From the IMG/VR virus record IMGVR_UViG_3300024297_000001: 64,000 bases of DNA. One strand, 5' to 3'. Source of the stretch: a virus. Its lineage: Duplodnaviria; Caudoviricetes. Below the pieces are notes generated by a model. The model saw only the letters and a program-made list of their open reading frames with translations, ran no database searches and was not told the DNA's origin. Below, in pieces: positions 12,591-63,511 of the stretch (position 1 is its first letter; each line of letters begins with the position of its first letter). The position numbers and the translations under genes were made by a program.

Positions 12591-13754
12591 ATGCCGAGAA
12601 TAAGTTTATATAAACCCGAGAAGGGCAAAGACTACGATTTCCTTGATAAGACTATTACAGAGATGTTTACAGTCGGGGGAACCGACGTTTTTGTACACAA
12701 ATACTTAGGTCCTAAGAATCCTGATGAAGCAGATGCTACACCTTCTGCTCCAAGATATGATGCTGTAAAAGAAACTAATATTCAAGACATGCTTTTCATG
12801 GAAAACCGTGATAGAAAGTATGATCCAGATATTTACGTTTTGCGTGGGATCTACAATGTACAAGATGTTGACTTTGATATGAGTCAGTTTGGTTTATTCT
12901 TAACCAACGACACATTGTTTATGACTATTCCAATCAACTATAGTGTAAAAACACTTGGTAGAAAAATTATGCCAGGTGATGTATTTGAAATGCCACACTT
13001 AAAAGATGAACATGCATTAAATGATTACCAAGTAGCACTAAAACGTTTCTATGTAGTTGAAGATGTAAACAGAGCGGCAGAAGGATTTTCACAAAGTTGG
13101 TATCCACACTTGTACAGAGTCAAGATGAAGCAAATTGTTGACTCACAAGAGTTCAAGGATATACTTGATTTACCAACAGAAGAAGGTAGTTCACAAACAT
13201 TACGTGATGTACTTTCTACATACGATAAAGAAATGCAAATTAACGATGCTATTCTTAATCAAGCAGAAGCAGACTCACCAGAATCTGGTTATGATACAAC
13301 TTCATTATACACATTACAAACAGATGCACAAGGTAAACCAGAACTTGTAACTGCCGACGAAGCAACAATTGACGCAAGTGTTAATGCCGGAAACTTAGAT
13401 GCAAGTAGAGTAAATCAAACACCAGACAGAGAAGGTTACAGTGGTTACTTACTTGGCGATGGTATTCCACCAAATGGAGAAGCATTTGGACATGGTATAG
13501 GTTTCCCAACAAACACAGCAAAAGGTGATTACTTTTTAAGGACTGATCTTATGCCAAATAGATTGTTTAGATTTGACGGACAACGTTGGGTCAAAATGGA
13601 AGATAAAGTACGTATGACATTATCTAACAAAGATAATAGAAATACACATAAAACTGGATTCATTAATAATACTAATTCAGGAACCATTGCTGGTGAAACT
13701 ATTCCAGAAAGACAAAGTTTAAGTAAAGCAATGAAACCAAAGGCGGATAATTAA
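12591..13754 (+). CDS. gp14: Neck protein (T4 gp14-like) with C-terminal extension; start at ATG 12591 (MPRISLYK)
   Basis: DMLFMENRDRKYD...YNVQDVDFDMSQFGLFL...GRKIMPGDVFEMPHL...WYPHLYRVK; the ORF-track start at 12447 overlaps gp13. Confidence 0.75.
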   Translation: MPRISLYKPEKGKDYDFLDKTITEMFTVGGTDVFVHKYLGPKNPDEADATPSAPRYDAVKETNIQDMLFMENRDRKYDPDIYVLRGIYNVQDVDFDMSQFGLFLTNDTLFMTIPINYSVKTLGRKIMPGDVFEMPHLKDEHALNDYQVALKRFYVVEDVNRAAEGFSQSWYPHLYRVKMKQIVDSQEFKDILDLPTEEGSSQTLRDVLSTYDKEMQINDAILNQAEADSPESGYDTTSLYTLQTDAQGKPELVTADEATIDASVNAGNLDASRVNQTPDREGYSGYLLGDGIPPNGEAFGHGIGFPTNTAKGDYFLRTDLMPNRLFRFDGQRWVKMEDKVRMTLSNKDNRNTHKTGFINNTNSGTIAGETIPERQSLSKAMKPKADN

Positions 13755-59253: not shown

Positions 59254-59703
59254 TTATGCGTTAGCGAAATCGTCATCATCAGTACCTGATAATGTATCGT
59301 CATCACCTGCTTCTTCAATTTGAACAGCACTGTCATTGTTTGCAGTACTAAAGTTCCATGCAATTGATGTTCCGCCTAAAGCGTTTGAACCTGTAGCATC
59401 TGGTGCAATGATTGTTGCTTTTCTTCCAGAAATCTTAGAAATCTGATAAGTTTCTGCGTCATCACCTTTAACAGTGATAGCCATTTCAGTACCAGTCAAT
59501 GCTGATGCTAATTTTGCTGTTGTTAAGAAACGATCGTAAGTTGTTCCTGGTGTACCGATTGCCGCTACACGAAACTTCTTCGCACCTAATTGCTTAACAA
59601 TATAACCTTCAGTAACAGCAGAGCCGTTATGAAAGTCAACTTTGATTTCGTTGCCACCTGCTGTAGGTACTCCGAAAAACTTTTTATTAATTGGTCTTCC
59701 CAT
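59254..59703 (-). CDS. Hypothetical protein (149 aa), possibly virion-associated
   Basis: Strong SD AGGAG; long structured leader. Confidence 0.65.
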   Translation of the reverse strand: MGRPINKKFFGVPTAGGNEIKVDFHNGSAVTEGYIVKQLGAKKFRVAAIGTPGTTYDRFLTTAKLASALTGTEMAITVKGDDAETYQISKISGRKATIIAPDATGSNALGGTSIAWNFSTANNDSAVQIEEAGDDDTLSGTDDDDFANA

Positions 59704-59795
59704 TTGTTTTCTCCTATATAAGTAGTCCTATCCGGGTTCTATCCGGTACGCAGTTGGTATTCTGCATAAGTCCGCCTTGCGGCACACTATCTGAC
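59704..59795 (-). promoter_or_regulatory. Cloverleaf-like structured 5' leader after late promoter ATAAATA (59801-59807)
   Basis: UAGU/ACUA closing stem plus three hairpins: UGCC-GCAA-GGCG, UAUGCAG/CUGCGUA, CCGG-AUAGAAC-CCGG. Confidence 0.5.
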
Positions 59796-59803
59796 ACAAG
59801 TAT

Positions 59804-60223
59804 TTATCTAATAGACAGAACTGGAGAATATTTTGGCTTTGTTGCTATATTGATAAATTCACGTACAAAGTCAAATCTTAGTGCTAATAATTCGAATATT
59901 TCAATGTCTAAATTGGTTGTAGCAAGGTTGTAACTGCTTTTTCCAATATTGGAATAGTAGTCAATGCTCATACCATAATCAGGAAATACGCCTGTAACAA
60001 AAAGACACGTGTCACCCAGTTCTTTTGCTGTTAATCTATAAGGCTGTTTTAATGATAGATATGCTTCTGCGAATGTTTTTTCTGGAAGGAAATTTGGCTT
60101 GTCTAATTTGTCTGCAAGAAGCATTACTACATACGCTTCAACTTCTAATGGAAGTTCGTAACCTGTAGTTGACTGTGCGTCTTTGACCAAGTCGTAAAAG
60201 GCCGTTGTGTATTCGTCCTTCAT
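59804..60223 (-). CDS. Hypothetical helical protein; probable start at ATG 60223 (MKDEYTTAF)
   Basis: ATAAATA (60229-60235) 5 nt before ATG 60223; KELGDTCLFVTGVFP...DYY..IGKSSY motif. Confidence 0.65.
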   Translation of the reverse strand: MKDEYTTAFYDLVKDAQSTTGYELPLEVEAYVVMLLADKLDKPNFLPEKTFAEAYLSLKQPYRLTAKELGDTCLFVTGVFPDYGMSIDYYSNIGKSSYNLATTNLDIEIFELLALRFDFVREFINIATKPKYSPVLSIR

Positions 60224-60244
60224 ACAAGTATTTATCGGGGAAAA

Positions 60245-60476
60245 CAACTATAACACTACTCGGGAGGCCTTGCTGTGAACTCACCTCCAACTTTCGATAA
60301 GCAGATCACATCTGAATTTTGCAAGGTTTAGATATGATACCTACTTCCAACCACCTCCATCTAAACCGAGCCACTTGGCCGCTTAAAAGACTTTAGTGTG
60401 CATTACGCCCCTGCCGAAGCGTTATTCTGCCACAAGTGCTAAGAGCTTATAACTCTCTTAGTTTGTGTTAAAGTTA
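60245..60476 (-). ncRNA. Candidate ~232-nt structured non-coding RNA of unknown class
   Basis: 5' and 3' ends pair (11 of 12 bp); at least 7 nested helices, one GNRA-capped; own sigma70-like promoter whose predicted +1 coincides with the 5' stem; no sizeable ORF. Confidence 0.7.
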
Positions 60477-60481
60477 ATATT

Positions 60482-60510
60482 AATATAACATTGTTTGCAG
60501 AAAAAAGCAA
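60482..60510 (-). promoter_or_regulatory. Sigma70-type promoter pointing into the candidate ncRNA
   Basis: TTGCTT (60510-60505), 17-nt spacer, TATATT (60487-60482), with an extended -10 TG. Confidence 0.7.
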
Positions 60511-60549: not shown

Positions 60550-60579
60550 AAAAAAAGGGCGACCAAAGCCGCCCTTTTT
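60550..60579 (-). terminator. Rho-independent terminator after gp23
   Basis: AAAAAGGGCG-GCTTTGGT-CGCCCTTTTTT. Confidence 0.9.
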
Positions 60580-60602: not shown

Positions 60603-61766
60603 TTAACTGAATGTTACACCTGTTACAGATACACGTGCCAAGTAGTCAGCCGCATTACCAAGAGATGATGCAGTGTTGTTTAACTCTACATAACCATATC
60701 TTGTCATGAAACTTACTACTGGTTCGAATGAACCTGGATCCAACACAACGCCTGAAGACATTAGCGGAATGTATGGGCAATAGAATGCCGCCGCATCTGC
60801 TTCTGATGTTCCTTTGTATCCAACAAGTACGTCTGTACTGTCTGATGCATAAGCGTCTACGTATACTTTCATAGCACTGTTTAATGTACCAACAAGTTTA
60901 GTGTTAGTAGGTGCTTCAAAAGTTCCTTCAGTTGTTCTTGCGAACGCTGAAGTTGTAGCAGACTGAAGTACTGTTAACGTATGCGGTGATACCACTGCAA
61001 AGTTACCAGCGCCACGTCTTGTACGCTGTGCGATCTTGTTAGCCGCTCTGTTAATCATTACAGCAAGTGCCGCATGTTCGTCACCGACGAATGTAGCAGT
61101 TCCTGATACAGCAGTTTGATCGTACTGTACATCTGATTCAGCCGCGCCAGCCAAGTTACGTAAAGAAGCAAGAACTTCTTGGTCGATTTCAGCAGTAATT
61201 TCTTGTGCTAAAGCCGCCATAATTTCCGCTTCAACGTCGATACCCTGTTGTGCTTGTGCATCTTGTGCAGATTCAAAAGTCCAACGAGCACTTAACTTAC
61301 GTGTTTTCGCTTCAACTGTTTGTTTTAAGATCTGAATTGACAATCTCTTACCTGCTTCACCTTCAAGTGCCGCTGTAGCAGATGCCTTATCAGTAGATCC
61401 ACCACCTGAATAGCCTAAGCCAATCTTGAACGGTGATAGAGCCTCTTCGCCTGCAGTCACATCATCTAATGTGTCTGAGTAACGAACTCTTAATGTGTGG
61501 ATTTGACCCACTGGTCCTGTCATAGGTTGAACACCAACGATTTCGTTAGCGATCACTGTAGGCATGACCCTTCTTATTACTGGTAGGATAACTCTATTTA
61601 AAGTTGCAACATTACCGGCAGAAGTTGCTCCTGCTGTAGCCGACTCAGCCAAGTATTTCTTGGTGTTGTCAAGCGTAGCAGACATAACAGACTTCTTATT
61701 GCCTTGTAGGCCTTCAAGTAATGCGCTCTTAGTTTCCTGCCATCTACTTTCTAATAGTTCTGACAT
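60603..61766 (-). CDS. gp23: Major capsid protein (T4 gp23-like, short 387-aa form)
   Basis: VIRRVMPTVIANEIVGVQPMTGPVGQIHTLRVRY, VEAKTRKLSARWTFE..QD, AFYCPYIPL, FMTRYG. Confidence 0.95.
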   Translation of the reverse strand: MSELLESRWQETKSALLEGLQGNKKSVMSATLDNTKKYLAESATAGATSAGNVATLNRVILPVIRRVMPTVIANEIVGVQPMTGPVGQIHTLRVRYSDTLDDVTAGEEALSPFKIGLGYSGGGSTDKASATAALEGEAGKRLSIQILKQTVEAKTRKLSARWTFESAQDAQAQQGIDVEAEIMAALAQEITAEIDQEVLASLRNLAGAAESDVQYDQTAVSGTATFVGDEHAALAVMINRAANKIAQRTRRGAGNFAVVSPHTLTVLQSATTSAFARTTEGTFEAPTNTKLVGTLNSAMKVYVDAYASDSTDVLVGYKGTSEADAAAFYCPYIPLMSSGVVLDPGSFEPVVSFMTRYGYVELNNTASSLGNAADYLARVSVTGVTFS

Positions 61767-61776
61767 TGATTTCTCC

Positions 61777-62883
61777 TTATTTTAATCCTGCAAGTCTTCT
61801 AATATCTACGACATTATCTGTTGCAGAATTACTTGCGCCATTTCTAACGTTAGATTCTTCTTTATTGCCTGTTACTTCTTTTGCCTCGGTAAGTGTCGCC
61901 TTCTTCTTCTCTGGAGTGTTACCATCAATAACGGACGGTAAGTACTTGTCAAACTGTTTTTGGATATTAGCAGTTTGTACAGACTCCAGTAAGTCTGACA
62001 TAATTTCTTTCTGTTCCTTGCTCAATGGAGCAGTTAACTCGGAAATTACTTCTTTTCTTTTTGCAGTATCTTGTGCTTTTTTGAACTCAAGATCCTTAGA
62101 CTCAACTAATTTAGTTGTTTTCTCAACAGTTGCTTTCGCTTCTGCTAATTGCTTGTCTTTCACCTCTACAACTTTTAAAAGTTTAGCAGTTTCTGATTTC
62201 TCATTCAAGTAAGAATTAGTGTACTCTTCTTGGAATGTTTCAAACAGTTTTCTACCAAAATCGTTTTTACGTGCTGAGTCGATGTCTTCTTTAAGTTGCC
62301 CAATCTCTTTTGTAAGAGTTTTTGCAACTGTGTTTTCAACAACTTTCGCTCCGTTTTTAACGAATTTTTCTTTTACAGTATCAAGATGCTTCTTAGCCTC
62401 TCTAATTAGTCGAACTTTAGTTTCTGCAAGATCCTTTTTGTCTTCGTGGAACTCTGCAATTTCTTTAGCCAAAGCCTCTACCACAAATTCCTCAAGTTTG
62501 CCAAATTTAGTTGACATTGCTTTTTGGTCTTCGTGTAACTCTGAAACTTCCTTGCCTAATTGTGCAACAACAAAGTTTTTAAGTAGGTCTGCGTTTTCAC
62601 GCATTGCTACATGGTACTTTGCTCTTGCTTCAGCAAGTTTTGTGCGGTCATCAGCAAATTCCGTAATCTCTGCACCAAGTCTATCCTCAACCATTTTTTC
62701 CACTGCTTCAGCCATTACTGACTTATCGTGGTCATATTTTTGAGCAAATTCTTCGCGAAGTTCTGCGGTTACTTCCTGACGGTTCTCTGTAATCTTAGCC
62801 GCCCATGCTTCTTCAATAGATGCTTTGATGTCTTCCGAAATTACGTTATTCTCAAAAAGTGATTTCAGTGCTTCCAACATCAT
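61777..62883 (-). CDS. gp22: Prohead scaffold/core protein (T4 gp22-like)
   Basis: Acidic coiled coil between the protease and the capsid gene; C-terminal IRRLAGL. Confidence 0.8.
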   Translation of the reverse strand: MMLEALKSLFENNVISEDIKASIEEAWAAKITENRQEVTAELREEFAQKYDHDKSVMAEAVEKMVEDRLGAEITEFADDRTKLAEARAKYHVAMRENADLLKNFVVAQLGKEVSELHEDQKAMSTKFGKLEEFVVEALAKEIAEFHEDKKDLAETKVRLIREAKKHLDTVKEKFVKNGAKVVENTVAKTLTKEIGQLKEDIDSARKNDFGRKLFETFQEEYTNSYLNEKSETAKLLKVVEVKDKQLAEAKATVEKTTKLVESKDLEFKKAQDTAKRKEVISELTAPLSKEQKEIMSDLLESVQTANIQKQFDKYLPSVIDGNTPEKKKATLTEAKEVTGNKEESNVRNGASNSATDNVVDIRRLAGLK

Positions 62884-62890
62884 GTTCTCC

Positions 62891-63511
62891 TTATTTTAAA
62901 CCTTGGATAATGTTAACCAAAGATTCTTTCAAATACTTCTGTGCCTTTGTGTCTTCTTTTACTTCGCGAGCCATATTAAATGCCTTATACCCACCTGTGG
63001 TATTCATCAAGTGCTCGTATATTGGAGTTGGATATGCTCCTGGAGCCGATGGTTGAGCAACTATATCAACTGTGATAATTTCAAAGTCGCTTACGTTACT
63101 GTCTTCATTTACGTTACCTGAACCACGCGATGAAACACCAAGTTTAACTCCGCTTTCCAGCATTGTTTTAACAAGTTGTCCCATCGGCGTAGGTAATACT
63201 TTTAACTTTCCATAACCGTTTGGTCCATCCATCCACATTTCTTTAATCATGTGCGAACAACGGTCAAGGTTAATGTTAAGGCCTTCTGGATGATCAACTT
63301 CACCAAGAACTGAATATCCTCCTTGAATCTGATCGTTAAGAGTGTTGACAGCCCTACTAATTTCACTTACGGGGTATATACGTTGGTTCGCATTGCGAAC
63401 GCCACCCTGTATACAAATACCTTTTAAATGAAGGTCTTTGCCGTCCTCAGTAGATTCCAGAACAATCTGAGCCTGGTCGAATGTCAAGTTCTCACGTAAT
63501 AAGTTCATCAA
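62891..63511 (-). CDS. gp21: Prohead protease (T4 gp21-like)
   Basis: NANQRIYP, LGEVDHP, LGVSSRGSG, TVDIVAQPSAPGA. Confidence 0.95.
   Translation of the reverse strand: MMNLLRENLTFDQAQIVLESTEDGKDLHLKGICIQGGVRNANQRIYPVSEISRAVNTLNDQIQGGYSVLGEVDHPEGLNINLDRCSHMIKEMWMDGPNGYGKLKVLPTPMGQLVKTMLESGVKLGVSSRGSGNVNEDSNVSDFEIITVDIVAQPSAPGAYPTPIYEHLMNTTGGYKAFNMAREVKEDTKAQKYLKESLVNIIQGLK

Follow-up and report, generated by a model that had tools for sequence, protein, structure and literature searches.

A probable stand-alone manA-type RNA of a rebuilt subtype behind the major capsid gene of a giant marine T4-like phage

A structured RNA of ~235 nt follows the major capsid gene of an uncultured marine giant T4-like phage and is probably a stand-alone gene, belonging to the wider manA kindred as a distinct, rebuilt subtype. 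The window analyzed here, a 64-kb stretch of DNA (64,000 nt), is part of the late structural-gene block of this phage. A preliminary description of the window had proposed that a highly structured, non-coding RNA with its own promoter lies behind the capsid terminator. This proposal holds, as do its coordinates, and the RNA (60241-60475) contains no conserved ORF. The same description could match the RNA to none of the classes it considered and regarded it as an undescribed element. The RNA of the window has no usable Rfam match itself; the view of it as undescribed is not supported, as subthreshold full-length matches to the manA model, the genomic slot, and the promoter point to the wider manA kindred.

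The manA RNA motif (Rfam RF01745) has been a riboswitch candidate since 2010 (Weinberg et al. 2010, PMC2864571). A 2026 preprint (10.64898/2026.07.01.735769) reports that manA RNAs form RNA-only decamers and a 60-mer cage in vitro, both built from pentamers. A GNRA-receptor contact and kissing loops, L5-L7' together with either L8-L9' or L3-L8', hold these pentamers.

Results

The capsid-gene locus

The prohead protease, a scaffold-like gene, and the Gp23-type major capsid gene precede the RNA on the same strand (Table 1). Among cultured phages, the capsid protein reaches at best ~70% identity, with Vibrio phage 2.275.O, Sinorhizobium phage Phosso, and the GAP32/CBB/PA5oct group; identity to marine IMG/VR contigs is up to 80-88%. 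In the capsid terminator, a GC hairpin is flanked by an A-run and a U-run, and the element could therefore work in either direction.

The gap between the capsid gene and the downstream 139-aa ORF (p139) measures 380 nt and contains the structured RNA. In one relative (L068), p139 directly follows the capsid gene without an intervening RNA; p139 is therefore not linked to the RNA. The T4-late-like motif GATAAATAC occurs five times in the 64-kb window against 0.78 expected, and the copy between the RNA and p139 is retained as ATAAATA in group-A relatives. This copy (60221-60236 region) lies only 4 nt ahead of the p139 ATG, with no Shine-Dalgarno sequence, and the late mRNA of p139 may be leaderless or nearly leaderless, a layout that group-A relatives share.

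Other structured RNAs are found nearby and in sister loci. A freshwater-2 RNA (RF02980, 73.8 bits) at 59701-59786 on the minus strand forms the 5' leader of a 149-aa ORF (59254-59703), directly behind a late-promoter-like GATAAATAC at 59800-59808, and many sister loci (L009, L019, L027, L038, L060) also have the motif ahead of their 'MGRP...' homolog. In sister giant phages, glutamine riboswitch aptamers (RF01739, 43-60 bits; L002 4233-4280, L009 4234-4281, L017 4254-4303, L038 4236-4282) immediately follow the capsid terminator; those of L002 and L009 stand ahead of a small ORF. In L021, the post-capsid slot holds a tRNA.

Table 1. Coordinates of the RNA, its helices, and the neighboring features in the 64-kb window
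Feature	Position	Strand	Description and basis
Prohead protease	62891-63511	minus	Late structural block
Scaffold-like gene	61777-62883	minus	Late structural block
Gp23-type major capsid gene	60603-61766	minus	Pfam PF07068 (Gp23), 7e-97
Intrinsic terminator of major capsid gene	60552-60579	minus	GGGCG/CGCCC hairpin; sequence and terminator scan
sigma70-type promoter	60482-60510	minus	-35 TTGCTT 60510-60505; 17-nt spacer; TG 60490-60489; -10 TATATT 60487-60482; conserved hexamers and 17-nt spacing
Structured RNA, ~235 nt, probable divergent manA type	60241-60475	minus	nhmmer and covariance-model matches, covariation, manA link
P1, terminal clamp, 5' arm	60465-60476	minus	Pairs with 60245-60256; different sequence in every member
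H1 hairpin, CUAAGAG/CUCUUAG	60461-60455 / 60445-60439 (60439-60461)	minus	5/7 pairs doubly changed
Pc, long-range closing stem, ACUUG/CGAGU	60437-60433 / 60262-60258	minus	100% paired; 3/5 doubly changed
P2'-P3 arm overall	60400-60430	minus	Motif common to manA
P2', GCA/UGC	60430-60428 / 60402-60400	minus	GAAUAA internal loop, UAA return; A55-U81 to G-C, 18:10
P3, ACGCUUC-GGCA-GGGGCGU	60422-60416 / 60411-60405	minus	3/7 doubly changed
P4-P5-P6, long irregular hairpin	60352-60398	minus	Covariation
P4, CACU/GGUG	60398-60395 / 60355-60352	minus	1/4 doubly changed
P5, GUCU/AGAU	60391-60388 / 60362-60359	minus	4/4 doubly changed
P6, GGCC-AAGU-GGCU	60380-60377 / 60372-60369	minus	2/4 doubly changed
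P7'-P8, two-part hairpin	60296-60341	minus	16-nt loop AAACCUUGCAAAAUUC; invariant UCUGCU bulge
P7', GGUA/UAUC	60341-60338 / 60299-60296	minus	Both sides vary at 3 positions
P8, UCAUAUCU/AGAUGUGA	60337-60330 / 60313-60306	minus	99.6% paired; one-sided changes only
P9, GGAGGU/GCCUCC	60288-60283 / 60268-60263 (60263-60288)	minus	1/6 doubly changed; A198-U219 to G-C, 17:11
P1, 3' arm	60245-60256	minus	Followed by UUUU 60244-60241
T4-type late-promoter-like GATAAATAC	60228-60236	minus	Between RNA and p139
Downstream ORF p139, 139 aa	59804-60223	minus	No family; starts at 60223

Promoter and family

The promoter proposed earlier, TTGCTT-17-TATATT with an extended -10 TG and a predicted +1 near 60475, is kept in 28 of 28 distinct homologs, each of which carries TTGnnn-17-TATATT, TATAAT, or TATTAT (TATAWT type), although the flanks differ. 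The extended -10 TG is present in 20 of these homologs and TTGAC in 14. A plain sigma70 scan misses the RNA promoter, as its -35 hexamer TTGCTT matches at only three of six positions; the TTGnnn-17-TATAWT form occurs at only two sites in the 64-kb window, and the RNA promoter is one of them. Homology among the members extends from the -10 box to just past the 3' arm of the terminal stem P1, and the sequence flanking the RNA is unrelated in several of them. These comparisons indicate that the conserved unit consists of a host-type promoter and the RNA, and nothing else, and that strong selection maintains a defined multi-helix fold.

At the 3' end, a terminator scan found no canonical terminator ahead of the next ORF. 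The RNA ends in P1 and a UUUU run, which varies among members and is not present in all of them. Transcription may therefore read through from the window RNA into the next gene. In group B, a second consensus promoter, TTGACA-17-TAnAnT, lies ahead of SSB/UvsX genes (L085 about 2700-2760; L103 about 13470-13500) and begins within ~10-25 nt of the RNA end.

To collect the family, IMG/VR and metagenomes were searched with segments of the RNA 18-38 nt long and then with nhmmer. This yielded ~70 matches, including 59 full-length copies, 28 of them distinct, with 70-93% identity, and the family was seen only in marine viral and metagenome contigs. Neither a blastn search of two family versions against 50,697 GenBank phage records nor an exact 20-mer search of 185,579 prokaryote genomes (one per species) gave a match. 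The nearest virus record (G001) carries no copy of the RNA. Both this RNA and manA are missing from several relatives (G008, G009; 186-210 kb). The RNA therefore does not belong to the core genes of the clade; it is sporadic within it and single-copy where present. About 10 contigs (L028, L091, L094, L084, L105, L114, L116, L118, L140) end inside the ~235-nt RNA, which is commoner than expected for such a short stretch and may reflect assembly-graph branching at a cassette common to different contexts or variants.

Overall architecture

The comparative model is organized around P1, which joins the first and last nucleotides of the RNA, followed by a 5' hairpin (H1) and then the long-range closing stem Pc. 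The closing stem encloses the GAAUAA-loop hairpin (P2'-P3), the long irregular hairpin (P4-P5-P6), the two-part large-loop hairpin (P7'-P8), and the last hairpin (P9). Across the alignment, the stems vary by compensating changes, while the loops and joints are nearly invariant, including the invariant P9 loop GAGUUCACAGCAAG.

Eleven helices are conserved, most with compensatory changes. The curated structure (28 sequences) contains 48 pairs, of which 20 are doubly changed, and each helix is at least 98% paired; RNAalifold predicted 56 pairs from 18 sequences, including 16 compensatory ones. The evidence for the structure is comparative: the single-sequence fold is modestly better than that of shuffles (z = -2.28) and would be weak by itself. 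A shuffle control used the alignment fitted to a model of the RNAalifold structure, on which the family model R1 is also based; the curated structure was scored separately. In this control, paired cells amounted to 99.7% versus 92.3% in shuffles, and the covariation score was 0.289 versus 0.141 when shuffled (0/500) and 0.05-0.07 for slid partners. Doubly changed pairs numbered 14 versus 8.6 in shuffles, with several covarying columns tracking one deep family split and independent events fewer than cells. A mutual-information scan over all column pairs placed the top pairs almost entirely within the structure and added P7'.

The terminal stem (60476-60465/60256-60245), a feature of the preliminary description, covaries in every member, with arms such as CAACUAGC/GCUAGUUG, CAACUGC/GCAGUUG, CUACACAC/GUGUGUAG, and CAACGGG/CCCGUUG. 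The mean duplex energy is -12.2 kcal/mol for cognate arms versus -7.9 kcal/mol for non-cognate arms. H1 and Pc are paired at 98-100%.

The inner stems of that description fared unevenly, with three or four (about half) wrong and two hairpins, CUAAGAG/CUCUUAG and ACGCUUC[GGCA]GGGGCGU, borne out by pairs changed on both sides (5/7 and 3/7). The suggested pairing of CCUC with a GAGG segment is also upheld, as CCUCC pairs with the second GGAGG (A-U to G-C, 17:11). The proposed CACUUG/CAAGUG stem is 90% paired but lacks doubly changed pairs, and 5-10 sequences disrupt it; GCUCGG/CCGAGU is 74% paired. The inner half of UUUAGAUG/UAUCUAAA fails, with column 124/150 mispaired in 23 of 28 sequences. Covariation instead joins ACUUG to CGAGU and GUCU to AGAU. 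CAGAU/AUCUG shows no covariation and competes with the 8-bp helix P8.

Additional complementarities could connect the loops. No covariation is seen for CCUUGC/GCAAGG, which 26 of 28 sequences carry unchanged and which is broken in the two most divergent members (L133, L142), an apparent invariance that is biased by part of the family having been gathered with a 20-mer from the loop of this pair. GGUUU/AAACC is 100% compatible, has one compensatory change (G-C to A-U in L142), and would form a pseudoknot. The RNAalifold helix GGCAGA/UCUGCU was rejected: it is 100% compatible, never compensatory, and clashes with the covarying manA-like GCA/UGC stem; it is a possible alternative or tertiary pairing. 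ARAGORN found no tRNA or tmRNA match.

Resemblance to manA RNA

A search of Rfam (4227 covariance models, at gathering threshold and at E<=10) returned nothing on the window RNA. RF01745 gave no match to it even at E<=10 in a 271-nt search, and none to its closest relatives. The model does match other family members. In L095 it aligns from model position 1 to 192 with a score of 21.4 bits, E being 0.0013 for a 331-nt search and 0.033 for 8.4 kb, and in L098 at the same place with 13.1 bits. The 306.7-kb contig G010 (87% complete) contains a single R1 match (186 bits), which coincides exactly with its only manA match (22.9 bits, E 1e-4). Three family subgroups thus match RF01745 end to end at 13-23 bits, below the gathering score of 55.2 bits, which the window RNA does not reach either.

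Intermediate RNAs bridge this distance. In the same post-capsid slot, L041, L012, and L030 carry manA-like RNAs scoring 44-50 bits, and R1 matches the intermediates L027 and L012 at E of about 0.001-0.002. True manA RNAs (75-80 bits) occupy the post-capsid gap of L052, L060, and L002, with the promoter GGTTGAC-17-TGTTATATT, the same as that of the window-type RNA. The intermediates (L019/L030/L041 and L009/L012/L024/L039) have the slot, promoter, and overall frame in common with the window RNA, as well as UUGGAAGUA-UAUC and the last hairpin; they differ in keeping GGGGUGGUACCC or related junction elements, in lacking P1, and in ending at clear terminators. Since nhmmer with the family profile found no match to manA loci, the manA link is visible only with structure-aware models.

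In the cmscan alignment, hairpin 1, the closing stem, the GAAUAA hairpin with its UAA return, and the last hairpin are matched and the four-way junction is deleted, so that only the outer frame aligns to manA and the middle ~90 nt do not. H1 corresponds to manA positions 1-26 and P9 to positions 162-187. The 5' hairpin followed by the long-range closing stem, as in manA, is supported by 5 + 3 compensatory pairs. The next manA feature, GC-AGAAUAAC-hairpin-GUAAUGC, compares with GCGCUAAUAA...UAAGCGC in the true manA of L060. The two-part hairpin P7'/P8 and the last hairpin P9 follow, the latter with its GAGUUCACAGCAAG loop next to the closing strand. The last hairpin has the manA form GUUGGAGGU...ACAG-AA...CC just ahead of the closing strand, and in L060 the last stem likewise has GUUGGAGGU as its 5' strand. 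Both RNAs occur in marine T4-like phages, in the same slot and with a TGTTATATT promoter.

The differences are concentrated in the middle and at the ends. Whereas manA has a junction with L5 (GGUGGU), L6 (GNRA), and L7 (ACCA), the corresponding model positions are deleted in the window RNA, with no ACCA loop and no GNRA hairpin, and covariation supports the single extended hairpin P4-P5-P6 in its place. The window RNA has the terminal stem P1, which the Rfam manA model lacks; its L3 is GGCA and its large loop AAACCUUGCAA, unlike the manA loops; and it is probably free-standing rather than part of a 5' UTR. We infer from these alignments that the RNA is a manA relative in which the outer frame persists, a single long hairpin stands in for the junction, and a terminal clamp has been gained. 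The link to manA runs through three other subgroups far below the gathering score, through the intermediates, and through synteny. The window subtype lies beyond the reach of the Rfam manA model, which suggests that the seed of the model should be widened or split.

It is unlikely that the RNA instead represents a new class unrelated to manA, its RF01745 matches and slot arising by convergence or by recombination of short modules. Consistent with such an origin, the matches reach only 13-23 bits against the gathering score, the window RNA and its nearest relatives have none, manA has nothing that corresponds to P1 or to the central ~90 nt, and nhmmer detects no sequence-level similarity to manA loci. 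The matches, however, span the whole model and recur in three subgroups exactly at the RNA, and the sole manA match in the 307 kb of G010 falls on it. The order of elements (hairpin, closing stem, GAAUAA hairpin, variable domain, two-part hairpin, last hairpin) is the same, the strings GC-AAUAA...UAA-GC and GUUGGAGGU...AAG-CC are common to both, and graded intermediates occupy the same slot with the same promoter. This argues for kinship.

Downstream contexts

The cassette is found in at least four gene contexts, which points to an RNA that probably stands alone: between the capsid gene and p139, between kinase-like genes and SSB/UvsX, near a radical-SAM gene, and before an exonuclease. A cis-acting leader or riboswitch, in which sigma70 transcripts read through the RNA and its fold controls the next gene, would fit the missing canonical terminator, the constant orientation of the RNA on the strand of the next gene, the small ORF that starts ~25 nt behind the RNA in L086/L095, and the Rfam listing of manA as Cis-reg and a riboswitch candidate. 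This role is nonetheless improbable, as the downstream genes vary (p139, SSB/UvsX, a small ORF, an exonuclease) and have their own promoters between RNA and gene (late-type in group A, a second TTGACA in group B). In addition, P1 closes the RNA into a single domain by joining its 5' and 3' ends, and no alternative fold that pairs with a ribosome-binding site was seen. The sister manA RNAs have a promoter on one side and an intrinsic terminator on the other, and L068 carries p139 with no RNA at all.

The preliminary description had also suggested that exposed GGAGGUG and GGA motifs make the RNA a decoy for 30S subunits or CsrA/RsmA. The window copy does contain GGAGGUG twice and GGA three times, with no ORF following; this reading is very improbable because the SD-like strings are strands of covarying helices and vary (the first, the 3' strand of P4 with C85-G131 to U-A, is AGCGGUG in L154-157; the second, the 5' strand of P9 with A-U to G-C, is GGGGGU or GAGGGU in 11/28 members), the GGA of UUGGAAG is lost in group B (UUCG-AG, UUCU-AG), PrrB_RsmZ matches (E up to 10) fall on the capsid terminator only and not on the RNA, and no CsrB/RsmY-type family matches anywhere in the stretch searched. 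CsrB/RsmZ-type sponges carry many GGA motifs in hairpin loops; the window RNA resembles them as a small, independently transcribed RNA containing GGA, and differs in that two of its three GGA lie in helices and none is conserved family-wide.

Discussion

We propose that the RNA descends from, or has a common ancestor with, manA RNA, and that the manA four-way junction with L5, L6, and L7 would have been swapped for one hairpin and P1 gained. Judging from the promoter type, the host RNA polymerase would transcribe the RNA early, within an otherwise late structural block. The ends of the mature RNA would be sealed by P1, and the RNA may act free rather than as a leader. Its invariant loops could make tertiary or inter-molecular contacts, GGUUU with AAACC and CCUUGC with GCAAGG; by analogy with manA, the RNA may fold compactly and might also assemble into a homo-oligomer through interfaces unlike those of manA.

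The ROOL and GOLLD RNAs form RNA-only homo-oligomeric cages via loop contacts (Nature 2025, PMC12286853). Like the window RNA, they are ornate orphan RNAs that do not code for protein, are associated with phages or prophages, and have conserved loops; they differ in being 2-4 times longer and unrelated in sequence and fold, and neither has an Rfam match to the window RNA. Because L5 and L7, which provide the contact of both solved manA pentamers, are missing, cage formation by the manA route may not carry over to the window subtype. The hairpins at the P8 and P9 positions are retained, and their loops are complementary over six bases (CCUUGC/GCAAGG). By analogy, oligomerization through interfaces other than those of manA is conceivable, though we would not count it as the expected outcome.

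The gap behind the capsid gene looks like a swap site for structured RNAs, including manA types, the glutamine riboswitch, a tRNA, and freshwater-2. More broadly, and tentatively, manA-type RNAs may not serve as leaders of genes but be diversifying, free-standing early phage RNAs that are exchanged among hot spots of giant marine phages as promoter-RNA cassettes, the present subtype having lost the L5-L7 contact and gained a clamp. If so, the subtype would either assemble through CCUUGC with GCAAGG into another quaternary form or work as a monomer, a natural experiment separating cage building from the core function of the manA family.

The window and its sister loci indicate that in giant marine T4-like phages manA-type RNAs are probably self-contained genes with host-type promoters inside late-gene blocks. 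The subtype missed by the Rfam model has strong comparative support, an explicit promoter, a sealed clamp, and a middle without the common pentamer-contact loops. Together with its sister loci, it offers concrete material for asking what the orphan manA family does.
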